Of a DNA stretch of 64,000 nucleotides, positions 16,412 to 63,731 are shown piece by piece. The notes under the pieces are model-generated. The model did no database searches and was not told the origin of the DNA. It saw only the letters and a program-made list of their open reading frames with translations. Source of the stretch: Euglena gracilis (lineage: Eukaryota); the NCBI GenBank assembly GCA_039621445.1, contig CP154954.1, positions 49,021,847 through 49,085,846 on the forward strand. The letters are read 5' to 3'. Both the position numbers and the translations under genes were made by a program. How positions within the stretch are numbered: position 1 is the first letter of the stretch; every line of letters starts with the position of its first letter.

Positions 16412-16664
16412 GCGGCCAGGGATGTACAGGAAAGACTGGTGGGGGGGGGGTTGGGGTTGACTGTCAGCCACCAAAGGAAAAAGGAATCATTTTTTAAGAC
16501 GCCTTAAAAAAAACCTTAAAATCCCTCAAAATTGCCTTAATCGTTGCTTTTGACCCCAAAAAAACGGCGCCGCCAGAAAAACGGGAAATCGTGGTGGGAT
16601 GGGGTTGGACCCCCCCCCAACCCACCACCCGTGGGGGTTCGGGGATTCCCGGACAGCCCGGACT
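16412..16664 (-). other. Putative non-conventional intron formed by a hAT-type MITE (253 nt), private to paralogue C
   Basis: GC|AGT CCGGGCTGTCCGGGAAT ... TTTCCTGTACATCCCTG GCCGC|G. TIR at +4 and -6; flanks GCCGCAGT / GCCGCGCC. Removal gives SAAPDLPICLLDM, the same length as SAELEDPHPLLDM in the uninterrupted paralogue. Confidence 0.8.
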
Positions 16665-16770
16665 GCGGCGGAGGGGGAGCGGCTGGTGGGGGATGGCAAG
16701 GCGCACGCCCGAAGGGTGTGGCGGGCTTGGGGGCAGCAGTGCCACCGGCGCCCCGGGAGGGGGTTCGCCC
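16665..16770 (-). CDS. Paralogue C, 5' part of the LLDMLRALN exon
   Basis: RRWHCCPQARHTLRACALPSPTSRSPSA aligns with RGRCRQARHALRGCALPSPADPFPSV; upstream boundary approximate. Confidence 0.7.
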
Positions 16771-19524
16771 ATCGTCGGGAGCCGAACGACACCCCCCGCG
16801 CCACTGGCAGTGTGGCGGATGGGGAGGACGCGGATGCGAATTCCGGGGAAGAGTCGAAATACCGAGGGCACAACAAACCAGGCAGAGCACAGACAAGACC
16901 AGACTTTCATTGAGCACCGCAGCGAACTATTCCGCGATGCAAAAGAAATTCTTGCCGCGGTGCACGTGGCGCACAGAAAGAAATCTTCCGCGGCGCAAGC
17001 AAACACAAAAAGTTTGGTGCCGCGGCGCAGAAAATTTTTTTCCGCGGCGCACTAAAATGAAAGTCAGGATTCTGGGGGCAATGTGATGCCCCTGATTCTG
17101 ATTCTCAATGTGCTCCCTCTTCAGGGTAAAGCCAGGTGGGGGGTGCTGTGGGGGGGGGGGAGCGGGAGACACCCACCTCGAACCCTGGCCCCTTCCAGAA
17201 TGATTTCTTCCAAGCCAGAATTGCAAACTAACAACAAACAGAATTACAACAAAAGGAGCGGGGCAATGGCATGTGTGGGGCGTTTTTCAACGACACAGAT
17301 TTTTGGGGGGCGAGATGACAGACAGGGCTGTGCGGAGAAGGGCCTGATGGGGGGGGGGGGTCGGGACCCCCCTCCAACCAGGATGGAGGATGGGGGGGGG
17401 GTTCGACCCCCAACCCACCATAAGGTTGTGGGTATTCCCATGCAGCCCTGGATGTCAGGGGGGGGATTGTGGGCGCCACGATGGGACCAGAATTAGTCGC
17501 CAAGCATTCAGGAGTTGGAGGCAAAAAAAAAAAAATGGGGAAAAAATTGGAGACGGCAAAAATTGGCTGTCCGAGCCAAAAGAGCAAGAAACATATTGGC
17601 AGGGTGTTCAGGCAAAAAAACAATTGGAAAAAATAGGAAAGGCAAACCAAAACAATGGCTGACCTCGCCCCGTGGTAGGGGTCCCAGGCTGGAGCTGGGC
17701 CCGGGGTCGAACCCGGGCACCAAAAAAATTGGAAATTTCAGAAAATATCAACAATATACAAAAAATCGATTTTTTGTTTTGACCCCAAATTTGTCTGGCC
17801 AGCACTTTTCTGACCCATTTTCGCCATTTTTGGCCCATTTTTGCACCCCGAAAGCAAACAAACAATCCGTTCCGTCCAGCTGCCCGAAGGGCAGCTGGAA
17901 AAAAGCAGAACTTGTTGATGGCTGCTGGTTGGCGTACCCCCCCCCCCCTGGGTGGGGGGGTCAAATCTTCTTTAGAAACTCCATGACCTCTGAAGATCAG
18001 ATAGCAACAGAAAGGCAGAGACCCTAAGACCTGAGCTGCTGAATGGCAGGATAACACATTTTTGTGCACACCAACCATGGGTGCCCAAACGGTGGCCCTG
18101 CTGGGCTGGGCTGGAGCTGGAGGTCGGCCCCGCGCCTGCAGAGCGGGAGGGGACCGGTTCAGCGCTCCTCGGGGGCGGGGCGGGGGGACGCCGGGGCCGG
18201 TGGGCCCAACCAGGGGACTCCTCCCCCTCCTGGGAAGTGGTGGTCGCCACAGCCCCATTCAGTATGCACAGTCCACGTGACAACTTCCCAGGTGGACAGC
18301 GTCAACCATATTGGGCGGGCAGGGTAGGAAATGAGTGGGGAGAGGGGGGGGGGGGTTGGGACCAGGCCCTGGTCGGCCCCTGGTTGGCAAAACAGTCGGA
18401 CATGGGTGGGGGGGGTCAGCAAATAAAAAAGAGGCACACACCCCGACCATGCAATACATTTTAAGCAGCACTTGTTGCCCACTGTTGGCCGTATTTTGCA
18501 TACTGTTCCTCACACTTGGCTATCTTTGGCCACTCTTATGGCGGCGATCTGCGCTGGTTTTTGCCCAATTTTGTGGCTGTGTGTTAGGCATTTTTCCCAC
18601 TTTTCGGCTGCTGTGAGCTTCTTTTGGTTGCTTTTAACCACCCTTGGTTAATTTTGCCACTTTGGCCACTTTCGGCTTTCTCGCCCATTTTTTTTTGGCC
18701 ACTGTTGCCTGCGTCTACTTCTTTTTGGCAACTTTTGGTCAATAGTGACTGCTTCTGGCCTCGTTTGGGCACTTTTGGCTGATTTGAGCCATCGGAAGCA
18801 ACTTTTGGCCACTTTGGAGCATTTTTTGCCCACTTAACGCGAATTGAGGCTTTTTGCTTCTGCTGTGCTTCTGCTCTGCTTTTTTTTTTTTTGCACTTTT
18901 GGTCCTCTTGGCCTCTTCACTTGCATCTTCCTTGAGTTGGTGGGAATGGGCAAAAAAATGGGCAAAGTGGGGCCAAAAGTGGATATAGAACGTGTAGGGG
19001 AGATGGGCAACAGTGGCAAAAATGCCCAAAAAAAAGACTGCAGGCCAGGAAGAAGAAACTTGTCCACCATTACCATGGAAATGATCGGCAAAAACAAATG
19101 GTAACATCGGCCCGAGTTGGCCCTAGTCGGCCCTCATCAGATCCCTCACAGTATGGGAGTCCTGAAAATCATGGTCACCCCTGGTCGAACCTGGTGGTCG
19201 GTTGGGAGGTGCTAGGTGTGCCCCCCCCCACCCCCATGAACAGTGGCTGTACAAAAAAAGGCCTGGTGATGGGGGGGGGGGGGGTCACCCCCACCCACCA
19301 TCACACCCAAATAAGGAAAATTTTGACCTAAAAATCGGCGCTCCCGGAAACAGGGGAATGCTAATGCGACATGTAGTTGCGAGGGGTTGGAGGGGGTTCG
19401 GACCCCCCCCTGCCACCAGAATGGGGTGGGGGGGTGGTTTTCGTCGGGGGTGGGGGTGGGGGGGTGGGGTGGTAGACCCCCACACACCACCCATGAAGAG
19501 GGGGGTCGGACCCCCCCCGGAAAT

Positions 19525-19652
19525 ATATTATTATATTTACTATATTATATTATTATATATATATATATATATATTATTAGATATATATATATTCTATATA
19601 CCACATACATATATAGATACCAATATATGTACATAATATATGATATATATAT
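19525..19652. repeat. AT-rich (TA)n/(TAT)n low-complexity tract
   Basis: Direct inspection. Confidence 0.9.
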
Positions 19653-21396
19653 GTTGTTGGCCCGTGTTTTTTTAAAAATAGTACGCAAAAACGCGATTTT
19701 CGGGCCTTGTCAAAGGCCCAAAAAATTTTTCACCGTACACCAAAAACTTCATCTCTGTACTTGGTTTCCGGGGAGTCCCCAGACCCCCTGGTCTGAAGGG
19801 GGGACCCCCCGTACAAAACCAGTGCTCACTGAATACCCTGCATGGGGTGACAAGCACTTATTTGGTTTTAAATCAAGGATGTTGGGGTACCACCGGGGAA
19901 AGGAAAAAAAAAAAAACAACCTTATCTTGGAGCAAAGTAAGTCGGAGAGGGATTTATTTGAGGGGGGGGGGGGTCCACATCGATAAGGGGGGTGGGTTGT
20001 AAACGAGGGGTTTGCTTGGGTGATTTACAACCTGAATAAACTGACTGAAATTGGCTGAGATTGGAATGGTTTTCCACCGGAAAACAACCCCTCCTTGGAG
20101 CAAGGCAAGCAAAATGAAAAAAAGATGTCCTGAGTGTGCAGCACTTTAGCAAGCAAACAGTTTCCAGTCGAAAAATGGCCTTATTTTTGCAAAAAAAAAT
20201 GTGTCAACTTTTAGAGAGAAAATGATTTCTGGATCCTTGGACATTTGCCCAGCCACCCAAAAAGTGTGTTTTGCGGCCTTTTATTTCTGGGCTCCGTTTG
20301 ACGCCCTTGGACAGACTAAGGCTGGCCCTTTGGCCCAAGGGTGGTTCTTACAGGGCAATACAATTTAAGAAAATCCCCGTCCCGTACACACCGCCTGGGG
20401 GTGATCAAAGAAAGCCCAAATCCAGCGGGACTTTGAGAAAGAGTCTTCAAAAATGGTAAAAATGGTTTAAAAAAATGGCGTTTCTTGTGGTTTTACCCAT
20501 GTTTTAGGTTAAAGAAATCCAATGTTTGTGGGCTCAGTGATCAGACTGTCCCATCGTTTCACCAGCGGACCCCTGGTGGGGAAGGGGGGGGGATCCGGCG
20601 TGAGAAGTCCCCTGGGCCCCACAGGGTTGGGGGCGGTGCGGGCGTACAGAGGGGTGACGTGGGCCGGGCAGGGCAAGGGGTTGACGGAAGAGGAGGGGGA
20701 GGGGGGGAGGGGAGCGCTAGACAGGCTCCCCAGGAAACAATGTCACATTTTGGGGGTCCCGGTGCAGGGTTGCTGTCCTGTGCGGTCAACGCCTGATTGT
20801 GGCACCGGCTCGGCCGCCCGCAGGGAGGGAGGCGGATCGGGAGCGCTCACCGCACCGTGCCCCTTCTGCGCGGCGGCGGACACGGGGATGAGGTGCGGGG
20901 CCAGTGGGGGGGCGGGGGACGGGAGCGCCCCACTGCAACGATGCATCCCTCGCATCTCCGCCATTGTTGCATGCGGTTCTCACTTTTACTCGCAGCACCC
21001 ACACAAAACACGATTGAAAACTGTTGAAGATCAGCGCAAAATGACAACGATCGGGGCCGGGGATTTGCGTATCCTCCGAATAATAATAAGCATGTCTCCG
21101 GGTCGCGATGAGGGTGGCAGGGCACCGTTTCGTAATCCGGCATCGGCTTCCTCCCGCAATCTTCCTCCCCCAGTCCAGGGCAGCGGGGCGGCCATGGAAG
21201 GGGGGATCCCCAACATTGGCAACGCTGGCTGGGCAATGACGTAGAGGGCAGGGGCCGCCAGCCACCGCACGAGTTGGCCAACGGGAGAAGACCGGTTTGC
21301 CTCGGGGGTGTTGTCCGTGGGGAGAGGCACGTTCCTCGCACGTCCCAGCCCCCAGGCTTTGGTTCAAACCACGTGGAGGAGTGTGCTCCCCATTTG

Positions 21397-22618
21397 CAAG
21401 CACCTATGACAGATTCCAAATTTTAGCCCGCGGTCGGCTGCGGTCGGCCGCGGTCGGCTGCGGTCGGATGCGGTCGGCTGCGGTCGGCCGCGGTCGGCTG
21501 TGGTCGGCTGCGGTCGGATGCGGTCGGCAGCGGTCGGCAAAGTAGTTGGCTGTAGGTGGGGGGCAGGCCAACAAAAAATGAGCATATATCACAATCACAC
21601 AATCCACTGTTGCCAACTTTTGGCCACTTTTTGATGCTTCTGGAGTGCTTTTGGCCACTGTTGCCGACTTTTGGTCGATTTTTGCTGCCTTTGCCCATTA
21701 TTTCCTGCCTTTTGCTTTGTTATGGTCACTTTTGTTGCTTTTGCCCACTTTTTTGCTGTGTTTTGGCTGCTTTTGGACAGCTTTTGCTTTACCTTGACCT
21801 CTTTTGACCACTTTTGGCCTCTTTAACCCACTTTTGACCACTTTTCTCTGCTTTTGGCCATTTTTACCTACTTCTGGCCACTTTCAGGCCACTTTAAACG
21901 TCGTTTTGTTGCCTTTGACATCAAGAGCAGTCAAACGTCACCTAAAAATGGCCTAAAAGTGGCAAAACATGGTTAAAATGGCCAAAAGTTCCAAAAGTAG
22001 GCAAAAATAACAAAAAAATGCCCAAAAATGGCCCAAAATGACCCTGCTTTTGGCCGATTTGGGTCACTTCAGCAGCTTTTGTTCACTTTTGGCAACAAAC
22101 TGGCACAAAATGCTCAAAATGGTCAAATTGGACCAAAAAGAGACAAAAAAAATGGGCAAAAATAACAAAAGAAATGGTCGAAAATGGCTTTAAATGGTTA
22201 AAAATGGCCCTAAATGGCCCAAAATGGCCCAAGAGCAGGACAAAATGGCCCAAAATTAACAGAAGTGGGCAAAAAGTGCCAAAAATGGTCAAAATAGGTC
22301 AAAATGGGTGAATTATGGTGGCAAAGGGGCCAAAAGGGGACAAAAGCGACCAAAAATGGCCAAAAGTGGCCAAAAGTAGCAACATGAGCCAGATGAGCCA
22401 GAAAAATCTCAACATCTGGGATAAAAATGAGCCCAATTCCTCATTCTCACTGAAAAATTGACATCAATTAGAAAAAAGTTGCGCGGTCGGCTGCGGTCGG
22501 CTGCGGTCGGCTGCGGTCGGCACCCCACCTATGACAGTCCTGAAACCCGTGGTCGGCCGCGGTCGGCTGCGGTCGGCTGCGGTCGGCTGCGGTCGGCTGC
22601 GGTCGGCATAGGTGCCTG
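21397..22618. mobile_element. hAT-type non-autonomous element, family A, copy 1
   Basis: TIR CA(A/G)GCACCTATG; perfect 8-bp TSD CCCATTTG; subterminal (GGTCGGCTGC)n arrays at both ends; closely similar copy at 44775-45959. Confidence 0.95.
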
Positions 22619-22941
22619 CCCATTTGGTCAAAGATGGAATGGGGGGGGGGGGTCACTCTCCCATCCTAAAATGAGCATAATCAAAACGGTTGACAATTTG
22701 CGAAGCCGAAAAAAAACCCTCAAAATCAACAAAAATGAATTTTGGAGAACTAGTTGGGAAAAAACGTCAAACAAAAAGACCGTCACAGCGCTGGAGGAAA
22801 ACTTCAATTCTTTTTTGGAATATCTGACGCATATTCATGGGATCCCTCTCTGGCTGCTATTTATTAAGGCTGCTATCAAATATATCACTCCCCACCTGAA
22901 TAGCAAACGAGAATGAGTGGTGTTCTTTTCATTGGGAGCCT

Positions 22942-23032
22942 CTGGCCGGGGTGCAGCTTGCTGCACTTCCCGCCGAACTTGCACTGCCCCGTCATGGCCC
23001 ACACCTCACACACCTGCCGACCGGCCTGGGCC
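22942..23032 (-). CDS. Paralogue C, CCCH zinc finger 2 exon
   Basis: AQAGRQVCEVWAMTGQCKFGGKCSKLHPGQ = C-x8-C-x5-C-x3-H; near-identical at 36474 and 51873. Confidence 0.9.
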
Positions 23033-24841
23033 TGCACCACACCATGGCTTCCTGTCCTGCCAGGGGTTACTTAACTTTCAACACACGACTCAGTTACTTC
23101 GACACTCCATCCCTCCTGGAGGGGGGGTTGGTGCCGCTACATAAGACCCAGAATTGATGCAGCATGACTGTTTTGTTCAGTAACTCAACGCCCTCATTGC
23201 CAGCTAAAAGCCACAATAACGCCCACTCCAGGGAGACCTAGAGGGGGCTCAGTGCAAATGTGAGAAAAACAACAAAACAAAACTAGTCAGTCAGTAAACC
23301 CCCCCCAAAAAATAAGACCCCCCCCCAAAATAAGACCCCCCCTGGGCCGATCGAGCAAAAATCCAAAAATAAGACCCCTCCCATAAATAAGACCCCCCTT
23401 GACGGCGCAAAGCGCCGGGGACGGTGAAAATCTTCCCTGAAAAATTACCAAAAACCCCAATTTCATACACAAAAATGATGAAATTTCAGAAAATTTCAGA
23501 TTTTTGAAGTGGAAAAAACATGGTAAATGTCAAATTACACCATTTTACACATGGCGCGAAGCGCCGAAGGAAAAATTTTAGCACTCTCGGGAACCTGAAA
23601 AATGGTGTTTTTTCGGGCCCGGGTCGGTCAAGAAAAAATCCAAAAATAAGACCCCCCCAAAAATAAGACCCCCCCTGGAGGCTTCCGGCAACGGACCCAA
23701 AAATAAGACCCGGGTCTTATTTTGGGGGGGGGGGTTTAGGGCGGGGGTACCTCGAAATATGCGATGCAAAAACGCAAAAAATGCAAATATAAGAAGACGT
23801 AAATCTCTTAAAATTTACAGTTTCTCCAAGACCCGGGTTGTGTTTTCTGTTGGAAAAAGCTTTACTCTCACCCCCCCCCCCCAAGCGCAATGAACACTAA
23901 AATGACAATCTGGACAGTCTTCGGAGAACACAGGGCAAAGGGGTTGGCTGACAGGCTTTCTTAAGGACCCCGGTCCACTGCTAAGCCATTTTGTTAGACA
24001 CTGGAAAAAATGGACCGGGTATTCCCCCTCCCCCCCCCCCAGGGTTGTATGGGAATCTCTGGGGGGGGGGGGGGGATCCCCCCTCCTACCTCCAGTTTTC
24101 GGTCGCCGAAAATTTCGGCCGCTTTTTGGGTAAAAAGATCGATTTTTTTGAAATTTCTCAAAAAATGGTGGGGAATCAAAAGAATGGGGGGGACACTGGA
24201 CTGGTAATGGCTAATTGTGAATAAAAAGCACATGGTGTGTGGTAATAATTTATTTTCCTTTGAAGGCTTGGTTAGACTGCTTCATTCACACGTGGACATG
24301 TGGACTTTGAAGACTGACTTGCACCAAGTTGCAATTGTAGGGGCACAATGTTCAGGCAAGAGCTCTGTCTTAGAGAGCCGAGTTGGGAGATATTTCCTGC
24401 CCTGAGTTTCGACATTCCAAAATTCCAAACGCCCCCTGTTCATTGCACAAGGGCGTTCATTGGATGTGGGGGGGGGTCAGGTAACTGAGTTATTTTAATT
24501 TCATAAAGCAAAACACTTTGAATAATCATTCGCAATCTTTTGAAGCCAAAAATGCATGATGAAAAGGGTGCCTTTCGTGTTTTTTAAAAAAAAACCAAAA
24601 AATGGGGAAAAAGACAGAGAAAAGCAGTGCAAACTTATCCTCGGGGTTTGTTGCGGAGTTGCATGGAATTATACTTCATTTCAAACAGCAACTCATTCAG
24701 ATCAACAAATCAACAAAAGCTTTCAAAGCATTGTTGAACCATTACAAAAACGCAGATTGCACAACTGGCATACCTCCCACCTGCAGTCAGCCAGCCATGT
24801 GCCCCCACCGCTTTGTGGGGACCCCAAGACGTGGTGTGGTC
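23033..24841 (-). other. Putative non-conventional intron formed by a TIR element (1809 nt), private to paralogue C
   Basis: GTGCA|GAC CACACCACGTCTT ... AAGCCATGGTGTG GTGCA|GGC. TIR 11/13; TSD GTGCAGAC / GTGCAGGC. Removal restores GTG CAG GCC CAG as in paralogues A and B. Confidence 0.85.
24262..24405 (+). pseudogene. Dynamin-family GTPase N-terminal/P-loop fragment
   Basis: TDLHQVAIVGAQCSGKSSVLESRVGRYFLP* versus dynamin LPQIAVVGxQSSGKSSVLExxVGRDFLPRG; TGA where Arg is expected; no further exons seen. Confidence 0.85.
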
Positions 24842-24900
24842 TGCACCGCGCCGGACAGCAGCTGGTAGTCCGAGAGGTCCGGGTGGGGGAACCGGCACCG
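24842..24900 (-). CDS. Paralogue C, 59-nt exon (end of zinc finger 1 plus linker)
   Basis: RCRFPHPDLSDYQLLSGAVQ; near-identical in paralogues A and B. Confidence 0.88.
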
Positions 24901-25470
24901 GGGGGACTGCCCCCGCCTCTGCCCAACCTCACACCCCCCCCCCCCAGGCACTTGGCCCGGGCCATGACTGAAAATCCAACTTTGCGGAGCCAAGTTCGCA
25001 TTTTAAGATTTTTTTGCAGGCCTGGGCATGATTGAAGGGAAGGCCAGGGGCCAACCTTTCGGCGCTAAACTTGCTGATGTTGAGAATTCTGGCGGCCATA
25101 TGGGCAAAGGCCGAACAGGGGCAGGCAAATGCCACTGGCACATTTACACAATTTCCCCCCCTTAATGTTCAAGGGTCAAATGTGGCATGTTTTCCTTCAA
25201 CATTTGACACATTTTTTCAAGTCCCCCTGCGCTTGCCCCCCCCCTGACTTTCATGCTATTTGTCCCTCTAACAGTTGGCCAGCAAGGGAGAACTCATTGG
25301 ACGAATGGGTTGTTGGTAAAAGCTCTATTCAAAACGGGGTTTTCAACGAAGATGGCAAACAACTGAAAGAACGCAAATGCACTGGGTTGATGAGCAAAAT
25401 GACCTGGGGCCAGAGAGAGAGAGAGGCAGATAGACAGAGAGAGAGTGAGAGAGAGAGGGAGAGAGGGAGA

Positions 25471-25504
<34 letters not shown>

Positions 25505-25677
25505 CAACTTCCCCTCCCCCTTTAATGGACACTGAAAGGACAACACGAGACATCATTGGGCGTGTGTTGTATGGCAGTTGTGTTGCTGAAAGGTGGCAAA
25601 CTAGACGGTCCTGACACCCGGTTCTTTAGACATGGGGGGGGGGTCTTAGGAAAGCCTGGCCAGGCGGGGGCAGGCTG
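24901..25677 (-). other. Shared non-GT-AG intron in zinc finger 1, paralogue C (777 nt)
   Basis: Ends pair CTGCCCCCGCCT / AGGCGGGGGCAG. Removal gives CLDYLKGRCVRRRCRFPH. Exact junction inferred. Confidence 0.75.
25411..25504. repeat. (GA)n microsatellite
   Basis: Direct inspection. Confidence 0.95.
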
Positions 25678-25850
25678 GCGACGCACGCAGCGGCCCTTCA
25701 GGTAGTCGAGGCACACGCGGGGGGGGCTGGCTTCGGCCTGGGCTGGCTTGGCCCGGTTGGCCGCGCGGGGCTGGGGGCCGCTGCCCCGCAGCACGCCGTC
25801 AGCGGGGGCCATCGTGGGGGAGGAGGACGAGTCGGACTGCATTTCTGGGG
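25678..25850 (-). CDS. Paralogue C, exon with first half of CCCH zinc finger 1
   Basis: ...AKPAQAEASPPRVCLDYLKGRCVRR; upstream boundary approximate. Confidence 0.82.
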
Positions 25851-26534: not shown

Positions 26535-27042
26535 CAGGGTTGTATGGGAATCTCTGGGGGGGGACCCCCTTCCAAAACTAGGGGGGGGGGACCCCCTCCT
26601 ACCTCCATTTTTCGGTCGCCGAAAAATCCGGCCATTTTTGGGGGGGGGTCCAAAAAGCAATTTTTCTGAAATTTCCTGAAAATGATGGGGAATCAGAGGA
26701 AATGTCAAAAGATCAAATTGAAGCCCTTAAAATGCCCCATCTAACAGAGTTTTGATTACCACTCAACTCCCCACCAGTCCCGAGTTACGGCCATTTTTTT
26801 TGTCCATTTTGCCAAAATTTCATGTTATGCCTCAAAAAAGTACAAAAATACACACCCGGCGCGAAGCGCCGGAATTTTTTTTTTTGCTCCCGCAGAGGAG
26901 GGGAAGGGGGGTGGGCGGGGACCCCCCCTTCCGAAACTAGGGGGGGGTGGGGGGACCCCCCCCCTACCACCTTACCCCCCTACGGGGGGACCCCCCCCCC
27001 TACCACCTACCTCATGTCTGCGGAGCTTCCCATACAACCCTG
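26535..27042. mobile_element. hAT-type MITE
   Basis: TIR CAGGGTTGTATGGGAA; perfect 8-bp TSD GGGGGAGT; central GGCGCGAAGCGCC; related left end at 24040. Confidence 0.92.
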
Positions 27043-30908: not shown

Positions 30909-32849
30909 CCCCACTGAGGGTCCGACTTCGTTAATGCACCCCCCAACAACACCCCCCAACAACACAAATGTCACAGAGGCCTGTGCAGTTCTTCCACCTC
31001 CCCCGCACTGAAATCCAAGGGACCTATTTCTTTGTTATGATTGCCAATGTCGGATTGGGACAAGATGTAAGGTGTCATTAGTAGAAAAACCATCCTGGAT
31101 ACGGGTAAACCCCCACCCCCAGGGCAGGAGTGAGTGGTGGTTTTGCGGGGGGGGGGGGTCAGACCCCTCCTTCGGAGCGAGGGCCCAGGGGGAGGGGGGG
31201 TCCGAGAACCCCTCTCATTCAATACCCTGCCCCCCGGGGTGCTAGTTTTTTTGCCCGAAGTCCCATCCAGGGGGGGGGATTAACAACTGAATTTTTGCCG
31301 AAAAACAGCCAAAAAACTTGAGGTTGGAAAAGGTTCAAAAATAGCAATACCACAGATTTGAGATGAAGAATCCTTGAACACCTCTTGTGCATTTGACCAA
31401 CGTGAATATCTCAATAAAGCGTGAAGTGTCCAAAACCGATGAAGCTGATTTCTTTATTTGTCCCACCAACCCTGCAAAACATCATCTCCAAACCTGACGT
31501 TGCGAACGTATCTGCATGCATATGCCTGTGATGCCCATACAAATCACAAACCGCAAACACCAGGTCATCCCAAACGCGGTTTTAGTGGCACGCACTTGAG
31601 CATTAATGTATAGCACTCCTCAGAAAATTTTTTTGCAGCCCTTTGATGTCAACGTTGCAGAGAAAAGCCAACACAGATCAGTCTAAACAAATCCCCCCCC
31701 TCCTCTGTGACAACTCCGCCTCACTCTGTGTGGCGTGCAACTGCCAGCGTCGACGGAGTACCTCAGTTCTGACGCACCACTGCCCCATCCCTTTGTCCGC
31801 GTCCTCGTGCCCCCTCCCCTCCCCTGCAGTCGTCAGTCATCCAGCGGAGGTCATCCCTGTTGACGGTCCAGGCAAGCCACAATGCATGGGGGCCGGCCGG
31901 GATGAAGGGTGCGGCGTTGGAGCCACCGGCTTAGGCTACAGCGGAACCAACGCGCGCTGCCGGCCCAACGAACCGACAGCCTCCCCCAACCCCCAATGCA
32001 CCGGCCAGCGCTGCCCTGACCCTCCACATCAAACAGGAGCACAATAGCCCAGGCCAATGAATAAAACCAATGAACTCCTGGCGGTCACAAAGCGGTCGGG
32101 GGGGGGGGGTGGCTTTTGAGTCGGTTTCAGGAAAACTAATCTCAAGAACCAAAGGGATTTGACAAAAACTTTGCATTTTGAGGAGGACTTCCCCAAGACA
32201 GAAGGTTTTTGGGATTCTTTTCAAGAAAGGTCCTTTCTGAATTTTTTGGGCCAAGAAATGGGAATGACCAACTTCTCAAGTGGACTTGCCAACTTGTTAC
32301 GCAGGCCAAATGGTATGAGCAACTTCCCAACGGGAACGCGCAAGCACGCAGGTGAGGAATTTTCCTTTGTCGCTACTTGGGCTACACCACCTGAAAGAAG
32401 CTCTTGTGTCTGCATTTCTGTATTAATGGGGAAATCCATCAAGGCAGCCTTGGGACAAAAATGTGGAATGGGGAGGCAAACTGAGAAAGGAAACACCACA
32501 GGTTCGTGAGGCTTGCCTGAAGGGACCGGCACTCGAGCCATGATGCAGCTTGTTCTGGGTGGCAAGAACCATGCACGATGCACAAACACTGGTTGAAAGC
32601 AACAGGGTCGTCCCGTTCACGCTTATTTCAAATAGGAAAAAAATTTAAAAAAAATGTTCAAATTATTACAAAAAATATTGGTCAGAATACCTTAGCATGC
32701 CTTAAAAACCAACATGCAAAAAAAATCCTAAAAGAACTTTTTCCATCATGCCAGACAAATTGCTGGAAAAACCCCTTCTGCCATGTCGGTCCCTTGGACT
32801 TCTCATCTTCCTTCTGGACTTCTCATCAAACAGCGTGCATTTATGGGGC

Positions 32850-32980
32850 GACGTTCAGGGCCCGCAGCATGTCCAGCAGGGGGTGGGGGTCCTCCAGTTC
32901 AGCGGACGGGACGGGGTCAGTGGGAGAGGGCAGGGAACAGCCCCGGAGGGCGTGGCGGGCTTGGCGGCAGCGGCCTCGGT
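32850..32980 (-). CDS. Paralogue A, uninterrupted LLDMLRALNV exon (function unknown)
   Basis: RGRCRQARHALRGCSLPSPTDPVPSAELEDPHPLLDMLRALNV. Differences from 46476-46610 include five synonymous third-position changes in this frame. Confidence 0.8.
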
Positions 32981-33229
32981 CTCTCAGGCAGGAAAAACTT
33001 GTGGTTGAGACACATTGAGCACGTGCTGTTCCAATATCATTGGTCTGGTTCAAACATGGGATGTGGTGAACACCACAATACCTGTCTAAATGAAGTGTTC
33101 TCTGTTACAAAACAACTGGGGGCTTTCGCAATCCTTGACCAGCTGACAATCATATGGGACAATGCCCGCTCAGCCATGCTGTGAAATTATCGCCACAAAA
33201 CAGACACGGGGGGGGGGGGAGGGGGTCGG

Positions 33230-33856: not shown

Positions 33857-33883
33857 GAGGGGTTTTTTAAAGACCGGGGGGTC

Positions 33884-46475: not shown

Positions 46476-46610
46476 CACGTTCAGGGCCCGCAGCATGTCC
46501 AGCAGGGGTTGGGGGTCCTCCAGTTCGACGGAGGGGAAGGGGTCTGCGGGGGACGGCAGGGCGCAGCCCCGGAGGGCGTGGCGGGCTTGGCGGCAGCGGC
46601 CCCGGTGACC
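46476..46610 (-). CDS. Paralogue B, uninterrupted LLDMLRALNV exon
   Basis: GHRGRCRQARHALRGCALPSPADPFPSVELEDPQPLLDMLRALNV. Confidence 0.8.
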
Positions 46611-49600: not shown

Positions 49601-51872
49601 GGAAAATGGACGCCTTAAAACTTTTTCAAAAAGTTTAAAAAAACCCTTAAAAACCGGTAAAGATTTTCAGAATTTTTGCCTTAAAAAAAATGCCGGGGCC
49701 TCCCTCCCCACCCAGCCCTGGGGGGTGAGTGTTGGCATTTCCCGAAATACCTCTTCCTTGCAATCCACATTGGCCCCGGACCCATGCACCCTCCCCAGGG
49801 AGTCTTCCGAGTCAAAGAGACGCCTAATCCCCCCGTCTAAGAAACAGAAAAGACGGGTAAGAACAGGGGGTGCTTGGAAAGGGGGTTGGTGAGTTCCATA
49901 GAAATGGTGCTGAGACAGGGGGTGGACTTGTCCGATGTGACCCACCCAGTTGTGACCCAGGCCCCAGTTGTGATGCTGTACCCTGCCAGAGGGAAAAAGG
50001 TTCGCGAATGCCACCCAATGGCTGGCCGAAAGACGGCAGCGGAGCGGTAGGCGCTGATTGGACAGGTTTCGTGATGATGTACCGGGCAGGGGCCCCCAAG
50101 CATGGGGGGTGGGTGGGCAGGGGGGGAGGGGGCGGGGGCAATGGCAACCGCCTCCCCCAGCCTCCGCTTCTCCGCTTCGACACCTTAAATGGTCCAAAAC
50201 TGGGGCCTTTGTCATGAACTGCAACTGCAGTGCAGATCATCTCGCTCCCCTCCCCAGACTAGTTCGGCACATACCCCCCCCCCCGGGTGCTTGGCATTGA
50301 AGGTAAGGCCAGGGGCCAAGTTTGCACGTTAAGCACCTTGGCAGCTTCTTTGTGAAAAAGGTCAAAGGCCAACTTTAAGGGGGGGGGCAAGTTTGCACGT
50401 AAGGGCCAAGAGGCCTGGGAGGGGGGGGTTGGAAGGTTCTCACAGGTCTGACCTCAGCATTGAAAGTTTGCTGAGACAGAGAGGGATTAGTGGTTAACCG
50501 TAGTCGGGGGTCAAATCCTTATCAATACTCATCAGTAAGTACCTGTATCGGTAGTTATCTGTGGTTGCTGACTGGGAATATCCATCCAGAAATGGCTGCA
50601 ACTAATGGGAACAGAAAGATTGATCATTTATGTTGCCTCAGAGATCCCGAGAATGAGGAAAATGAGGGGAAAAAATGCCAAAGGCAACCAGAAGTAGCCA
50701 AAAGTAACCAGAGGTCTCCAGAAATGGTCAAAAGCAGCCAAAACAGCCAGAAAGAGCCAGAACTGGCACACATGGGCCAAAAAAAAAACATGGCAAAAAA
50801 ACAGTCGGAAAAAGCCAAAAAAAATGACCAAAAGTGGCAAAAGGTGGATAAAGGTGCCCAAAAGATGCCAAAAGCACCCAAAAAGCAGCCAAAAACAGTT
50901 GAAACTAGACAAGGCAGCCCGAAACAGCACAAAAAGGAGCTAAAACTGGCAGAAGTGGCCTGAAGTGGGCAAAAAAATGCGTAAAGTTGGCGAAATTTTT
51001 TATTTGGGGGGAGGTCAGACATCTGGACCCAGCAGGGATTTGTGCATATTCTGAAATAGATAACTGCAGACAACTGACAAAAGACAACAGACAACCACAG
51101 ATGAATGCGGATAACTATGCATAACTACAGATAACTGTGATAAGCCAGAAATTTTGGCCAGTGAGGATGAGCTCATGAGCTCATGAGTCATGAAGCTCAC
51201 CTATTTTTGGTCACGCCTCTTTGGGTCCGTTGCTGAAAGTCCCGAGGGGGGGTTCTTATTTTTGGGGACGTACATTTTTGCATCTTTGCAGTATGCTTTG
51301 GCCGGAAAAAGCCTTCCTGCGGAAGGCTCCGAAAGTGGGTTCAAAAAAGGACGATTTTTGTCAATGAGCAAAAAAAAAACTGTTTCAAAACTGGCAAAAT
51401 GGGAAATTCAGGGTGAACTGAGTGCAACCGTGAACAATACACTATTACAATTTTTTTTAAAAAATGGTGAAATGGTGCAAAATCTGGCCCAATGCCAGAA
51501 GCAATTGCTGAGTGTGGAAATGGAACGGCAGTTAGATGAAAACACGAAGAAAGTGGAGGATGGAGGTTTTCAGGGGTTGAGGAAAACCGAGAGGGAATTT
51601 TCTCAGCTGTCGTTTTTGGAAAAATCTGTAGGAGAAATGAACGTGGCGGTACAGCAAATGGGGGAGAAGGAAAAACAGCCGGAGATTGCTGTTAATCAGG
51701 TCAAAAGGTGCAGGTTAAAGGTTAAAAGGTCAAAAGTGCAGCTGTTTTTCCACCCAATGAACCCAACATTGCTCTATGCGGCAGAAAAATAGAGGAGTCT
51801 AAACCAGGCACGCATATACTCACTCGTCAAAACTAACAAGTGGGGAGGCCTCTCTGCCCAGCACGACGGGGG

Positions 51873-52025
51873 CCCCTGGCCGGGGTGCAGCTTGCTGCAC
51901 TTCCCGCCGAACTTGCACTGCCCCGTCATGGCCCACACCTCACACACCTGCCGGCCGGCCTGGGCCTGCACCGCCCCGGACAGCTGCCGGTAGTCCGAGA
52001 GGTCCGGGTGGGGGAACCGGCACCG
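51873..52025 (-). CDS. Paralogue B, exon with end of zinc finger 1 and all of zinc finger 2 (uninterrupted)
   Basis: Same translation as 36474-36626. Confidence 0.92.
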
Positions 52026-53340
52026 GGGGGACTGCCCCCGCCTCTGTTACACATGGTTGGGCTGGAAAACCAAAATGCCATGCAAGCCGGCCCACCCAAC
52101 TCGCCGGCCAATCCACAGTTCAGCTGGCATGGAGACAACACAAACAGGATTGTACGGGCACACCTCACAAAAAAACGCGACGCAAATAGGCTGAATTTGA
52201 CCAACCTTCTGGGGGTGTTTTCAGAGTGCCCTGGAGGGCCTCGGCAGGCAGCCCTATCCCCCCCCCCCCGGGTGGGGGTTGGTGCCTGACTGGTGGCGGG
52301 CCAAAAAGTGCCCAAAATGTGCTTTTCTGGGCTTCCGGTGCCTTCGGCGCTGGTTGGTCCTTGGCCGAGTGCTCAGGCACTTTTGGTCATGCCCCCCCCC
52401 CCCGGGGGGGGTCGGATCTGGGTGCCTTGGAGTGCCTGCCAAGCACCTATAGTTGACCCCCAGATTTTCGCCATTTTCGGCCATTTTCGGCCATTTTCGG
52501 CCATTTTCGGCCATTTTTGGCCATTTTTTCCCCCATAGGTGGGGGTTAAAGCTGCCTCAAAATTCTTTCATACCAACAATGCATTTTGATCATTCAGTCA
52601 ACATGCAAACAGTCGTGACAAGCTAACGCATCCAAGGAGGTCCGTTCGGAATGGGTGCTCAGGAATTAACGAGGTCAAAGAGTTTTTTGTTGCATGTTGT
52701 TGTATGCAAATGCAAGGTTTTGGGAATAAGGTCCTTTATTCCTGCCAGAGAGGCTCTTGTCCACTTTGATATTTTTTGCTGGGGGTTCTTGGGACGCTTC
52801 ATGAGAGTGGTTGGCACATGACATATTAACCACAATGGTGGGTGGCGACGCCAAAACTGGTGCTTTTCTCTTCAAGCCTGTTGGCGTGGATGCTTTTCAC
52901 AAACAACTTCCCCTCACCTATTCCAACTTGATACCCCAAGCAACATTGTTTGATGATGGCACTGTTAGATCCCATCCACTTGTGTGCAATAAACCTAATG
53001 CAGGAATCACCCTATATCTATATCTATATAGAATATAGATATAGATATAGATCTGTATATATGTGTGTGTGTGTGTGTGTGTATGTGTATATATATAGAT
53101 AGATAGATAGGCACTGTTAGATCCCATCCACTTGTGTGAACCTAACGCAGGAATCACACCTTTAACAGAGAAAAAAACGCTTCACATACTTTGCCTGGTT
53201 GCACCTTGTCACCACAATTTTCTGAAATGTCATCAAACCCATCTTTGGCCCAAATAACCCATTTGGTGGTGGTTCACTGAGCAGCATGTGTTCCACGGTT
53301 AGGCATAACGGCAGGAGAAGAGAGGCATGACTTCAAAGAA

Positions 53341-53424
53341 GCCTTGATGTAAAATTTCATCCGTCATGTTGAGACGATCATCCGTCTGGATATGGCGAAA
53401 TTGGGAGAAAGTGCGCTCGGCTTG
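53341..53424 (-). pseudogene. hAT transposase C-terminal remnant (catalytic Glu / dimerisation domain)
   Basis: QAERTFSQFRHIQTDDRLNMTDEILHQG matches the hAT pattern ERxFSxxxxIxTxxRxx(L/M)xxExL. Confidence 0.8.
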
Positions 53425-53466
53425 AAATGTGTGCATCTTGCCCAATACCTGGATCTTGTCAAGATG

Positions 53467-53745
53467 TTAATCTTGTCCAGTACCTGCATCCACTGCATCT
53501 TCTCCAGCATCTGCATCTTGTCCAATATCTACATCTTGTCCAGCATCTGCATTTTGTACAGCATCTGCACCTTGTCCAGTGTCGACACCTTGTCCAGTGT
53601 CTGCATCTTGCCCAGTGTCCACATCTTGTCCAGTGTCTGCATCTTGTCCAGCATCTGCATCTTGTACAGCATCTGCATCTTGTCCAGTGTCGACATCTTG
53701 TCCAGTGTCTGCATCTTGTTCAGCATCTGCATCCATTGCATTGTG
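53467..53745. repeat. 18-bp minisatellite (ATCTGCATCTTGTCCAGC-like), about 15 units
   Basis: Direct inspection; explains the 6-aa periodic ORFs in several frames. Confidence 0.9.
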
Positions 53746-54732
53746 TCCAGAATCTGCAACCACTGCATCCGCTGGTTCCCAACCTAGCAAATTTTATACT
53801 CCGCCCATCTTCTCCTTTTCCCCGACCCCAGCCCGCCCATCCCACTCCGCAACACTAGCAAATACCAGTCACAGACCCCATCTGACCCTGACCGCAAAAG
53901 GCCCCCAAAAGCAACCAAAATGACCTAAAATGGCTTCAAATAACCTAAACTTGCCCAAAAACGCCAACAATGTCACAAAAAAATTGTTAAAAATTACCCA
54001 AAATCACCAAAATGGCGCAAAATGGCCAAAAATGCCATAAAGTATGCTCATATTGACCCAATTGGCCCAATATTTGCCAAATCAGTGCAAAATATCCCCA
54101 AAATTAGCAAAAATTGACCCAAAATGGCCCAGACGGGTGTAATGCTGGAGGTTTGTGGAGAAATTATCCCAAAAAAGGGTTTAATTCTTCAAAATATACA
54201 AAAAAAATGCCAGCATCACCCTTGTCACCAAAATTTTCTGAAATGCCATCAAAACGTTCAGCTTTGGTCCAAATAACCCTTTCGGAGGTGGTTCTTTGAG
54301 CAGCATGTGTTGCAGGGCCAGGCATAATAACAAAAGCAGAGAGGCTGCACAGAGACAAGAATCAGTCGCCAGGAAAAAAGAAACTGTTAGGCAAAAGAAC
54401 TCGAAAAAAAAATTGCACCAAATTTTTTCTCATTTTCGGCCATTTTCGGCCATTTTCGGCCATTTTCGGGACCCCCACCTATAGAGCCCAAAATTTCATT
54501 TTCGGCCATTTTCGGCCATTTTCGGCCATTTTACTGTAGGTGCTTGGTGCCTACCCAGACAGGCACACCCCCGGGGGATGGGGTCGGCACCTTGAAATTC
54601 AGCCTGGACACAAAAAGAACAGGAAAAAGAGCAAAAAGAAATGCTTTTGTTTGTCCCCCCCCCATGCAGGCTGTACAGGCAGGCCTCCAACCGCGAGATA
54701 ATTGTGGAGGTCAGCGAGGCGGGGCCAGGGCG

Positions 54733-54909
54733 CCGCCGCACGCAGCGGCCCTTCAAGTAATCGAGGCACACCCGGGGCTTGTCCGCCTTGTCCTCGCGGG
54801 CCGGCGGGGATGGGGGCTTCGCTGCCTTCGCCTCAGTGAACGAGCCGCCCAGCGGCCCATCGCTGGCGATGGGGCCCATGGCGGGGTTCGAGAAGGCCGG
54901 GATGCGCAT
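54733..54909 (-). CDS. Paralogue B, exon with first half of zinc finger 1
   Basis: MRIPAFSNPAMGPIASDGPLGGSFTEAKAAKPPSPPAREDKADKPRVCLDYLKGRCVRR; synonymous changes versus A and C (GAT/GAC, TTG/CTG). Confidence 0.85.
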
Positions 54910-55054: not shown

Positions 55055-55674
55055 CAGGGCAGAACGGGAAGGCCTGGTGGGGGGGGTCGACCCCCCACCC
55101 ACCAGAGCATTTTCACCGATTTTGGGAAAACGGAGATTTTGGCCAGAAAATTTTTTGAATTTTCTTTGAAAAATGAACCCAAAACACATGATTTTTTGAT
55201 GGAAACGTACATTTTCCCACAAAAAAAAATCTCAAAATTTCAGGGTTAAAAATTGGCAGTTTTTAGGATGGGGGTGAAAAAAACGAAGGTCAAAAACAAT
55301 AGACCAAATTTTGGCAGAGTCAAATTTTACTGACATTTTTTCTCTTTGAAATTTTTTGGACTTTCAATGGCATTTTTGCTTCAAAAACCTCTCAAAATCA
55401 AAATGAGAAAATGTTGAATTTTTGGAAGGTGTGAAAAAATGAGGGTTTGAGGGGTTTTTGGGGGGACCTCCCATATGGGTCCCAAAATGGGTCAAAAAAC
55501 ACCCGGCACCGAAAGCGCCAGAAAAATTTTTTCGGGTCCAAAAATTGGTGCACCCGGATATACAGGAAGAGGTGGTGGGGGGGGGGGGTGGACGCCCCCC
55601 CCCCCACCCACCATGCAGGGGGTGGGGGTGGGTCGACCCCGCCCCACCGTTTGGCCGATTCCCATTCTGCCCTG
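55055..55674. mobile_element. hAT-type MITE, family B, copy 2
   Basis: Same TIR as 5230-5856; TSD GGGGCAAG / GGGACAAG. Confidence 0.9.
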
Positions 55675-60569: not shown

Positions 60570-63184
60570 CCTGCTGGACCCCCCAAGGGGTCTGAAAAGA
60601 ATGCATGTTATGCAGGTCTTTGCGTTTTTTGGTGGCATTTCTTCAAAGGCTTCACAACTGTTCCTCGTTCACGACCAAGATGAAGTGCGACCCCCCCCCC
60701 TGCGCCCCCAACACCCCCAGAAGTGGCCAAAAGCAGTTAAAGGGAGCAAAAAGCAGCTAAAAATCAGACCAACTGACCAACCACGCTGAAATAACCCTCC
60801 AGTGTTTTTTGTGCATTGTTTTTTTACAAAATTTTCTTTCTCCAAGGCTGCGGGGAGGCATTGGGGAAAAAATTTGACAGAATTACAAAAGTGGCCAAAA
60901 TGGCTTGAAAGTGGCAAAATGTGGGGGAAATTGGCCAAAAGCAGCCAAAAAAAAGGCTTAACGTGGGCAAAAGTGGGAAATTATGGACAAAGTTTGGCAA
61001 TGCTTCCAACAAGTCACACATGGCTTCTGAGGTGCAGGCAAATATTTTTGGGTGGGCGCTTCCACAGCCCCGCTGGTGCAGGGAATCCTTTTTTTTAAAA
61101 AAAAGTCGTGCCGGTGCAAGAATTAATGATTCATTGTTGCATTCCCTTCTTTCACCAATTTCCAAAAGCGGGGGGGTCGCGGGGGGGTCGCGGGGGGAAA
61201 CGGGTTTTGCGGCAGGTCATGCATGACTTATGTGACGTCATTCTTTCCTCTACTTTTAGATCCCAATTTGGAATTTGCGTGCCATTTGGGTCCAAAAGTA
61301 GGTCCAATTAGGAATTTGGGACGAGTTTCTCGCACTTTTGATTCCTAATTGAGTGGCAGATTCCCATCCGCCCGCCCCTTGTCGTACGACCGGGTTCCTG
61401 CAACCTGTGACCGGGGGGGGGGTCGTAACACCCCAATAACCTGCAACCTGTGACCGGGGGTAAATGAGGGGTGGTCGTAGGGGGCGGGCAATTAATATAA
61501 ATTTTTTGTACTTTTTGGAATCTCGAATCGGTTTCAGAGTGGGGGCGCGGGGGGGGGGGGGTTGCGGAGGGGTCGCGGGGGGAACACCCCCTCTGTTGAC
61601 TGTTGGTGACTTTTTGGGGGGCGAGAGTGGGCAAAACTGGCCAAAACTGGACAAATGCAGTGAAAAGTGGCCACCACTCCCCCTGAGTGTTCAGCATTGG
61701 CCTCCCAGCAAGAGTCCCAAACATGGCCAATTGTGGTTTTACATTGGGAAGTTTGCAAAAATGGCCAACTGTGGCCAAAATTTGCCGTGTTGGGGGGGGG
61801 AGCAAGGTATTACAATGACAGATAATAAAAACAGAAAAATAACACTTCCGACACATAGCTTTTGGGGTAAAAAGCCACACCACACTTTGCTCTTTCTTCC
61901 CAAAACTGAAACCTGTCTTCACACATCATCCCCACTGCAGACAACCATCCCATTCTGCAACATCACAACTGCCTTCTGTGGCATCAACATTGCATCTCTG
62001 ATAATGCAATTCAATCAAGATATTTATTTCAACCAGCTGCTCGTCAATGCCAAGCTTCTCTTGATCTCAAAATCAATCAAATGAATTCTCTGTGGAAAAA
62101 GCAGGAAAACTTGACAACTTTTTGGTTGTTGTTTATTTACTGATGGCATTCCATTGCTGTACAAAAAGCACAAAAAAAAGCAAGGATCCAGGAAAATCAT
62201 TAATTACCAATTAGAAGAGTCCTTTTGGACAATTTTCTCCATCCTTTTGTCCGCAATCTATAAAACTTCAAAACTAAAAACATAAAGTCTTTGTGTGGAC
62301 AATTTTCTCCATCCTTTTGTCCGCAATCTATTCTTCCAAGAAATTTTGTTGTGTTGTCATGCGCCACACATTAGCCTTGAAGAGTTGGGAGTTTTTGGAG
62401 AATTTGTTTTTTCCTTCATTGTGACAGTTTCTCGAACTTCCATTTTTTGAGTTTATTTTTTTCGTATTTCGATCACAAACCCCAGGAATTTTGCCAGGTG
62501 TTTGGAACCCCTCCGGCAACAAATCCCAACAAAGTCCGACAAATCCCAACGAATCCTGGAAGGCGCCCCCCCCATCAGCTTTCCGAAGGATTGAGGGAGT
62601 GGAATAGCTCAGAGGGGAATGTAGCTCATGCACATCAGTTTGCCGGTGGATGTTACTCAAAATCCCTGCCACACTTCTTTCCTTCCATTCTGCCAGACAT
62701 TCCCTGGACACATACCGATACAAGGAAGCACTGGGTATGTGAGGCCAGTGGAAAGGGACCGACAAGACACTGATGCCCAGAAATGTGTGAACCACATGCC
62801 GATTCGTGTCCCGTTCCCTCCACCCCAACACCACATCCGTGCTCTCACCCAGGTGCATGCCACATGTGCACAAAATCCGTGTACAAATCTTGGGAGAGTC
62901 TTTTCAGAAATCAAACGGAGAAACAATCCGCCGCCATTGACCTTTTTTCAGGTGAGGTTGGCCCCCAAATTTCCTGGAGAAGAGTTGGTGGATTTTGAGC
63001 GTTGTGTTCAGTATTGTTAGCGGCGACGATACATTTATTATTCCTTGAGTCTACACAGGCAAGCAAATGTATTTTCAAACAAAGAGGAGGGAGGAGCGGG
63101 TTGTGTGAGTAAGACACCACACAGACGGTCTTCAAACAACCGTCGCCATTCCCCAGGCAGAACTCTCAGGGTTCAGTAGCTGGG

Positions 63185-63226
63185 GACGTTCAGGGCCCGC
63201 AGCAGGTCCAGCAGGGGGTGCGGGGC
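63185..63226 (-). CDS. Paralogue D, 3' part of the LLDML exon
   Basis: APHPLLDLLRALNV. Confidence 0.8.
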
Positions 63227-63731
63227 TTCTGCAGGCTTCTTTTTACCAACCCCCACCGGGGGGGAGGAGGGTGCCTTGTGCCAAGGGGTTCCTGCCCACA
63301 ACAGGCGGGTCGGTTTTGGAGCCCAGCAGTGCCTGTGACCAAGCAAATGTTCCCACAAAAAAAAATCCCTTAAAATTGCCATTTTCGGGCCCCGACACCT
63401 GCGTCACCGGGGGGGGGGGGGAGGTGCTTTAGCACTACCCACCCCAAAAACCCGACCCCCCAGGGCGGGTCGAAAATGCCCAACCCCCCTGCCTGTTACA
63501 GCATCCACCTGAGGGGGGCAAAACTCCTTACCTCCCCCCCCCCTTGTCGTTGACACGCCAATGTTCCACGAGAGTGTCGTTGACACGGGGGGTGTGTGTC
63601 AACGACACGCCATGTCAATGTCACTGAGATTCAATAGGTAGTGTTCCAGGAAAGTGTCGTTGACACGGAGGGTGTGTCAACGACACGCCGTGTCAACGAC
63701 AAGGGGGGGGGAGGTAACAAGAGGCCTGGGT
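63227..63731 (-). other. Putative non-conventional intron formed by a hAT MITE (505 nt), private to paralogue D
   Basis: GAG|ACC CAGGCCTCTTGTTA ... TAAAAAGAAGCCTG CAGAA|GCC. CAG at +4..+6 and CTG at -8..-6; TIR 12/14; TSD CAGAGACC / CAGAAGCC. Removal restores collinearity with A and B. Confidence 0.88.
63531..63714. mobile_element. TA-flanked MITE nested at the inner edge of the intron TIR
   Basis: TA|CCTC(n)TTGTCGTTGACACG ... TGTCAACGACAAG(n)AGG|TA; relative at ~25940-26077. Confidence 0.85.

Follow-up and report, generated by a model that had tools for sequence, protein, structure and literature searches.

Non-conventional introns of euglenids carry no GT-AG ends and begin to pair three nucleotides (nt) inside the donor and five inside the acceptor, and the locus described here raises the question of whether these two spacers together measure out one target site duplication (TSD) of a transposon. 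We investigated a stretch of 64,000 nucleotides of the Euglena gracilis genome (here called the window; GenBank assembly GCA_039621445.1, contig CP154954.1, positions 49,021,847 to 49,085,846), in which self-comparison disclosed four tandem paralogues of a CCCH zinc-finger gene, A to D, all on the minus strand. [quoted passage not shown] Our data suggest, with a probability that we put at roughly 0.8, that new non-conventional introns of Euglena arise from TIR elements with 8-bp TSDs, and that splicing, by cutting 3 nt ahead of the element and 5 nt behind it (the 3+5 register), removes one TSD along with it.

Insertions and empty sites in the zinc-finger paralogues

The three positions given in that description proved exact, with elements of 245, 1801 and 497 bp lying between recognisable 8-mers. 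Insertion 1 (16412..16664, minus strand) is a spliced non-conventional intron of 253 nt, made up of the element 16417-16661 and 8 nt; insertion 2 (23033..24841, minus strand) is likewise spliced and comprises 1809 nt, that is, the element 23038-24838 and 8 nt; and insertion 3 (63227..63731, minus strand), in paralogue D, is a predicted non-conventional intron of 505 nt, consisting of the element 63232-63728 and 8 nt. A fourth intron of paralogue A, missing from the earlier account and discovered through RNA rather than through its repeat, displays the same build (18206..20617, minus strand, 2412 nt; element 18211-20614 of 2404 bp, and 8 nt). The flanking 8-mers agree at 5/8 positions in insertion 1, 7/8 in insertion 2, 6/8 in insertion 3 and 7/8 in the fourth intron. 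CAG...CTG ends were observed in insertion 3 and in the fourth intron, the latter at the 3+5 register. The CAG-type ends of the earlier account hold for insertion 3, but not for insertion 1, which has CCG at +4..+6 and CTG at -8..-6, nor for insertion 2, which shows CAC...GTG and harbors nested repeats.

When the element and 8 nt are removed, the exons align without gaps across each of the three sites to the uninterrupted paralogues, namely B and C for insertion 2 and the other three paralogues for insertions 1 and 3. The reading frame is restored as well, and the retained insertions bring stop codons in all three cases, in agreement with the length and frame restoration described before. This restoration does not in itself point to splicing, since removing any element together with one TSD restores its target; the evidence of splicing comes from RNA instead. 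The empty site is clean for insertion 2, near which B and C are 92-97% identical. Only 7 nt separate insertions 1 and 3, which lie in a diverged stretch; A is empty at the site of insertion 3 and D at that of insertion 1, and the empty-site test for these two amounts to equal length within that stretch. At the fourth intron, the corresponding exon of paralogue C is unbroken, though the alignment is poor. Two marks of introners were therefore found at this locus, TIRs with a TSD at the intron borders and an empty site in homologues, the second cleanly for insertion 2 only. The interior of insertion 2 also contains, at 24208-24402 on the plus strand, a fragment of a dynamin N-terminal domain that ends in a stop (Pfam E 7.6e-5, below the curated cut-off), which is a gene piece captured by the TIR element.

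Splicing of the insertions

Four runs from four studies were matched to positions 15800-25400 at 98% likeness. Two of them are raw RNA runs chosen by species label, X21 (142 reads, about 5% of the run) and X24 (43 reads, about 6% of the run), while X11 denotes contigs from a presumed RNA run and X19 those from a DNA-like one. Fifteen of 20 joints were listed, and the joint counts given here are from those listed. The joint 16411/16665, which removes insertion 1, was found in 4 X21 reads, 1 X24 read and one X11 contig, and its joined form is not listed in X19, whose contigs cross both borders of the insertion. For insertion 2, the joint 23031/24841 was carried by 11 X21 reads and 5 X24 reads; it slides over 7 nt, a range that includes the predicted 23032/24842, and RNA depth in the unique interior of the insertion was 0-0.07. 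The junctions predicted as 16665/16411 and 24842/23032 were accordingly seen in the RNA of two studies, with 5 and 16 reads, respectively. The fourth intron is removed by the joint 18200/20613 (slide 7), observed in 1 X21 read, 1 X24 read and an X11 contig, and one X11 contig joins A-specific exons across both insertion 1 and the fourth intron. Reads over the insertion-2 joint reach up to 61 nt into the side on which three bases are specific to A, and the joints peculiar to A were similarly frequent (3-8 X21 reads). Insertions 1 and 2 and the fourth intron are therefore removed from mature RNA. Among the 15 joints listed, no back-splice joint of the kind left by a circle was noticed at this read depth.

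TIR elements and the 8-bp duplication

A scan anchored on CA, which collected inverted-repeat pairs starting with this dinucleotide, pairing at 11 or more of 14 positions and lying 60-3500 bp apart, yielded 831 pairs. Among them, 12 are flanked by an 8-bp duplication with at most one mismatch, 7 of these being perfect, while permutations gave a mean of 0.57 and a maximum of 4, and 0 of 1000 reached 12. Duplications of 7, 9, 10 or 11 bp were absent from the CA-starting pairs, those of 5 and 6 bp occurred at background level, and the other 15 dinucleotide starts displayed no comparable 8-bp peak in the same scan. The 8-bp TSDs of the preliminary description are borne out by this sharp peak, but less well by insertion 1 itself, whose flanks agree at five positions within a diverged stretch. 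Two further pairs that looked perfect, at 41410/41420-42779, were dropped, as they lie within a tandem repeat.

Two of the 12 duplicated elements are introns, and the remaining ten are not intron borders as far as tested. The element 5230..5856 has a perfect 8-bp TSD and a copy at 55055..55674 (7/8 TSD) that is 84% identical and sits in another target. Similarly, 21397..22618 (perfect 8-bp TSD), which is nested in an RNA-defined intron, and 44775..45959 are 91.5% identical to each other and carry different perfect 8-mers, and two copies of one family with different perfect 8-mers are what DNA transposition gives. Perfect 8-bp TSDs were also detected at 26535..27042 and 41713..41975, both with 14/14 TIR pairing and the latter being the closest to insertion 3, at 42551..43286, which contains the nested element 42829-43136 (7/8), and at 43736..44158, whereas 52440..54546, in the first intron of paralogue C, has a 7/8 TSD. 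About ten free-standing elements had been claimed for the window; of the ten elements with TSDs that are not known to be intron borders, 21397-22618 and 52440-54546 lie inside introns, and 42829-43136 is enclosed by another element. Insertion 1 resembles, in its two arms and in the same orientation, the ends of 5230-5856 (z about 6.6), as does insertion 3 the ends of 41713-41975 (z about 5.8), values that are rough because the null pool held the elements' own ends. Introns of this locus therefore share their ends with elements that are not known to be introns, although this applies to insertions 1 and 3 and not to insertion 2, which is without a family in the window.

On the minus strand, the element 21397-22618 has paired ends and could itself be taken for a 3+5 intron, yet no joint removing it alone is among the 15 listed. 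The X19 word depth over it is 55,000-246,000 as against about 31 in unique bins, which is not a copy number, and the element is therefore highly repeated. Apart from the CA count, a 78-bp element at 10142-10219, whose inverted ends start with CT, is flanked by an 8-bp duplication that is perfect and palindromic. Searches of public metagenome and viral contigs with the TIR patterns gave 0, 1, 3, 0 and 1 matches, none extending beyond about the pattern, and these were rejected as chance.

Register and age of the introns of paralogue A

A GT-AG or GC-AG option was found at any compatible position in 0 of the 9 RNA-supported introns of paralogue A. Pairing from +4 and -6 inward was observed directly in seven of the nine; one shows it if its outer pair is allowed to mismatch, and another is offset by a base. 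The unambiguous joint 20669/20799 and two joints with a one-base slide agree with a stem running from +4 to -6, and the end duplexes of the introns range from -15 to -35 kcal/mol (no shuffle control). Besides the three paralogue-specific introns, that is, insertions 1 and 2 and the fourth intron, paralogue A contains six others, all on the minus strand. The intron 21244..22947 is common to A, B and C and has CAG...CTG at 3+5 and a flank identity of 4/8 (8 + 2 reads and an X11 contig). A CGC...GCG stem at 3+5 with 3/8 identity was found in 20921..21193, and a stem at 3+5 with CAG at +4, CTT at -8..-6 and again 3/8 identity in 20670..20798, whose joint is the one without slide; each has 3 reads and an X11 contig. 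The intron 16729..18106 (CAG...CTG at 3+5; 3/8) was seen in an X11 contig only, and its donor was inferred, since reads and window disagree at 18114-18149. Another intron common to A, B and C, 24901..25677, was located by loose ends at 24900/24901; it has 12 consecutive pairs and 4/8 identity, and fits 3+5 only with the outermost pair as a C.T mismatch. The 12-pair stem is kept in this intron and in its homologues of B and C, while the three interiors are unrelated, suggesting selection on the stem alone. Finally, an intron of the 3' untranslated region (14126..16285) has a GT start without an AG end and 1/8 identity, and was recognised from the loose ends that 9 + 4 reads and X11 show at 16286. 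Its stem lies one base off the 3+5 register, and a possible reading is an intermediate intron or a one-base assembly error.

Flank identity at the 3+5 register, counted without the introns of paralogue C, is lower in the older introns. The three paralogue-specific introns of A match at 19/24 positions (4e-6 against random exon 8-mers), a figure inflated because the repeats were part of the reason for selecting two of these introns, and the other six at 18/48 (P 0.24), which is background level. In the three spliced insertions, the removed length (253, 1809 and 2412 nt) equals the element plus 8, as the 3+5=8 geometry of the preliminary description requires, but the RNA bounds the cut only to bases 3-5: provided that all young introns share one register, the cut lies after TSD base 3, 4 or 5. 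As the duplication hides the cut in young introns, the value of 5 rests on the older introns and on published knock-in genetics, and in the young introns themselves the cut would fall after base 5.

Paralogues, exons and sequence variants

Paralogue A (16286..25830, minus strand) was delimited by RNA joints and loose ends and assigned to the CCCH zinc-finger genes by zf-CCCH matches in Pfam on its homologues. Its exons lie, on the minus strand, at about 25830-25678, 24900-24842, 23032-22948, 21243-21194, 20920-20799, 20669-20618, 18205-18107, 16728-16665 and 16411-16286, with the next exon from 14125 down, and the reading frame is open across the first seven exon pieces. Paralogues B (32847..37354, minus strand) and C (46467..54909, minus strand) are both empty at insertions 1, 2 and 3, and C has its exon unbroken at the fourth site. 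Of paralogue D, the window holds the last coding exon (63150..63800, minus strand), the upstream exons lying beyond it. The transcript protein P0002, which contains two CCCH fingers according to Pfam, maps exon by exon onto paralogue C, with 87-95% identity to its 3' exons. A protein search for the spliced product of D returned only P0002 (1 of 38 candidates), which is weak evidence either way. With the zinc-finger exon of paralogue B, 6 of 42 candidates matched, four of them bearing EukProt 'EG_transcript' names and two being GGOE transcripts, which we take to be Euglena gracilis and E. longa, respectively.

The loose ends of RNA at 24900/24901 show three variants of the upstream exon end, one of which is absent from the window, and the gene family is therefore larger than A to C. 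RNA bases differ from the window at 16359, 20905, 22957 and 22970, reflecting alleles, strains or paralogues; the change at 16359 (G>A) is present in 8/12 X21 reads and 3/3 X24 reads. At 18114-18171 and 15863-16060, the window disagrees with RNA reads by two single-base gaps and a 35-letter stretch and with X19 contigs by several insertions or deletions, these being assembly errors or another allele. Outside the zinc-finger genes, fragments of kinesin motor exons were detected on the minus strand at 3006-3554 (Pfam E 8.9e-6) and at about 6053-6418 (no Pfam match). The element 5230-5856 sits between these two fragments and may either lie within an intron or itself form one.

Discussion

The mechanism that we propose for these observations has few steps. 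Non-autonomous cut-and-paste elements with short CA-starting TIRs would insert into exons through a transposase with an 8-bp stagger, duplicating 8 bp of the target. In the pre-mRNA, the two TIRs would pair to a stem, and the non-conventional splicing activity would cut 3 nt before the stem and 5 nt after it, so that the cuts would fall between bases 5 and 6 of both TSD copies. With both cuts at the same bond of the two copies, ligation would rebuild the original 8-mer without a scar, and either orientation should work because a TIR reads the same on both strands. Later, the intronic halves of the TSD would drift to background, nested elements would lengthen the interior, and the stem alone would be kept. 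By this route, which may account for most non-conventional introns, two published features of the junctions would be explained as well: a like pyrimidine|purine pattern at both junctions, found in 49-55 of 55 introns (PMC4770533), and a last donor-exon base that is dispensable for splicing (PMC12501133), would both be predictions of two copies of one 8-mer.

A number of findings weigh against this interpretation. The evidence comes from one gene family in one window, and the reads are few, with about 5-6% of each run sampled. Cross-mapping among paralogues occurs near insertion 2, where 25/33 X21 reads carry the base of B and C at 23020, and the fragmented DNA contigs may leave room for an A-like copy with an empty site; the contigs of X11 and X19 span the insertion-2 joint in neither form and therefore give no control there. 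Insertion 2 is also without a relative in the window (best z 2.1). An earlier scan over all dinucleotide starts, which demanded an unpaired outer base, gave 4 matches at 8 bp, a number reached by 50 of 1000 permutations; that demand lost most true elements, and the scan was therefore replaced by the CA-anchored one. The 3+5 register is fitted poorly by two of the nine introns, those with the mismatched outer pair and the one-base offset, and the flank identity of the young introns is overstated by the selection mentioned above. The bounds that RNA sets on the cut within the duplications are wide, at most 5 for insertion 1, at most 6 for insertion 2 and at least 3 for the fourth intron. No transposase was found in a Pfam scan of 103 of the 643 reading frames of the window, chosen for high complexity, which disclosed kinesin, dynamin and one weak Cas4 match. 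Moreover, insertions 1 (CCG) and 2 (CAC/GTG) are spliced and yet lie outside the published code N3-CDG...CHG-N5-6|R, with which the fourth intron and insertion 3 agree; as the code covers just 61.2% of non-conventional introns (PMC12501133), this misfit is not exclusionary.

The alternatives that retain the TIR elements differ from our interpretation in what set the geometry or in what moved the elements. The geometry could be older and set by the splicing enzyme, in which case it would act as a filter, and only elements with a TSD as long as the two spacers together (8, or 9 where the acceptor spacer has 6 nt) would survive in exons. This account, to which we assign slightly less than an even chance, is compatible with the one proposed here and differs from it in the direction of cause alone. 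It gains from an acceptor spacer that tolerates 6 nt and from synthetic introns that splice well without any TSD (PMC12501133), from putative non-conventional introns in a heterotrophic euglenid (PMC8219788), and from old introns that work without a trace of duplication, but in this window every CA-starting element with a detectable duplication has 8 bp, also outside exons, where this filter does not act. As for the mobiliser, a hAT transposase is favoured with some reserve, and there is a sizeable minority chance that the same geometry was produced by another superfamily with 8-bp TSDs, such as P or Merlin, or by several. Both hAT and P elements typically have ends that start with CA, and the TSDs of P elements measure 7-8 bp. 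At least five TIR types are present among the elements of the window, and the 103 frames scanned held no hAT transposase. Two Merlin families with 8-bp TSDs have been reported from E. gracilis itself (PMC8101967), but these have 5'-GG-3' termini, whereas the elements described here start with CA and the GG-starting pairs show no 8-bp peak. The 8-bp TSD and TIRs of about 11-17 bp by inspection suit the description of hAT, in which TIRs are 10-25 bp long (PMC8961557).

The remaining accounts fare worse. Repair of double-strand breaks, with staggered ends filled in and the inverted repeats serving as splicing signals, was the published reading of the 8-nt repeat at a gapC intron (PMC4770533), and it could accommodate insertion 2, for which the window has no family and which contains a captured piece of a gene. 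We consider it improbable, as it predicts no fixed length, while the repeats here are 8 bp only, abut TIRs and recur in multi-copy families at different targets, and in two introns both arms are shared with families of this kind. An artefact, in which joined reads stem from paralogues or alleles without the insertion and paralogue A is silent or a pseudogene, appears very improbable, even though reads do cross-map at insertion 2 (A>G at 23020, and at 23038 12 loose ends of B/C type), the gene has additional paralogues and RNA variants occur in A (16359 G>A). The last exon of A is only about 80% identical to the others, whereas reads needed 98% likeness; the X11 contig links A-specific exons over insertion 1 and the fourth intron; X19 crosses both borders of insertion 1 with no joined form listed; and at insertion 2 the reads extend well into the A-specific side, in numbers similar to those of other A-specific joints. 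Spread through RNA, by reverse splicing of excised circles with the non-intron copies as by-products, is the account to which we give least credence. Excised introns have indeed been reported as full-length circles (PMC11282704), but the old flanks of 3 and 5 nt would be expected to travel along and no new duplication to arise, in conflict with the different perfect 8-mers at 21397-22618 and 44775-45959, and no back-splice joint is among those listed. Insertion of TIR elements with 8-bp TSDs followed by 3+5 excision thus remains the reading that we prefer.

A bolder version can be put forward tentatively, with odds clearly below even: the splicing pathway, which serves about 70% of Euglena introns, would be an RNA-level system of excision directed against transposons whose 3+5 ruler evolved to fit the 8-bp stagger of a hAT-type transposase, and practically every non-conventional intron would be a TIR element that has been domesticated. 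Whichever way it inserted, an element with an 8-bp TSD and ends that pair would then be born as an intron, and such tolerance would help explain a gigabase genome filled with MITEs.

Several components of this explanation have been published separately. A MITE origin was proposed by Milanowski in 2014 (PMC3935182), and an eight-nucleotide direct repeat at a strain-specific gapC intron was described in 2016 and read as break repair (PMC4770533). The knock-ins of Nomura in 2025 established that splicing needs a spacer of 3 at the donor and of 5 or 6 at the acceptor; direct repeats were found at 84.4% of introns, with the origin of the introns called unclear and the words 'TSD', 'duplication' and 'hAT' absent from the available text, and the derivation of the code left out introns with direct repeats as 'slidable' (PMC12501133). 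The review of Mikina in 2024 mentions TIRs, TSD-like repeats and a likely MITE origin, 'hAT' being absent from the accessible part (PMC11282704). Of the papers found, in the portions at hand and including PMC11170887, PMC12455990, PMC6221363 and PMC12637253, none identifies the two spacers with a TSD or brings hAT into connection with these introns, in a search that did not extend to subscription journals and theses. The link of 3+5 to one TSD, whose novelty the preliminary description had left for verification, is thus apparently new, although MITE origin, TSD-like repeats, the 8-nt repeat of a young intron and the 3- and 5-nt spacers are each in print; that the link itself has already appeared somewhere is doubtful, with the chance still appreciable.

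The rule matters because papers of 2024-2025 call the origin of euglenid non-conventional introns unclear and the asymmetric spacers have no explanation in the published portions that we found, and equating 3+5 with one TSD makes the MITE hypothesis sharply testable. It implies a peak of flank identity at 8, junction sliding that stops near 5 nt upstream and 3 nt downstream, and 9-bp duplications at 3+6 introns, and flank identity would serve to date introns. The 'slidable' introns discarded as ambiguous may hold the signal of origin, and a route of intron gain without spliceosomal signals would be added to those known.

Comparison with known systems

The insertions resemble the non-conventional introns of euglenids in having no GT-AG ends, in pairing from +4 and -6, and in the purine found at +1 of the intron and mostly also at +1 of the exon; a recent gain, a proposed MITE origin, TSD-like repeats and one reported 8-nt repeat are also common to both. 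They differ in that two of them, with CCG/CTG and CAC/GTG ends, fall outside the published code, and the euglenid intron papers, in the parts available, neither tied the spacers to TSD length nor named a superfamily nor showed members that are not introns. With hAT MITEs, the elements share the 8-bp TSD, short TIRs, non-coding and multi-copy nature and asymmetric subterminal arms, but neither a transposase nor an autonomous partner was found in the window, and hAT membership is putative. The Merlin elements of E. gracilis agree in TSD length and species and differ in their termini. Finally, the introners of Micromonas, stramenopiles, dinoflagellates, Fritillaria and Amoebophrya are likewise MITE-like, with TIRs, TSDs and scarless removal, but the spliceosome removes them by way of dinucleotides that come from the element or from a co-opted TSD (PMC11282704). 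The window shows two or three related copies per family, too few for a family of introns, and in the Euglena insertions both cuts would fall within the copies of the TSD, at a distance measured from the TIR stem, and would require no dinucleotide.

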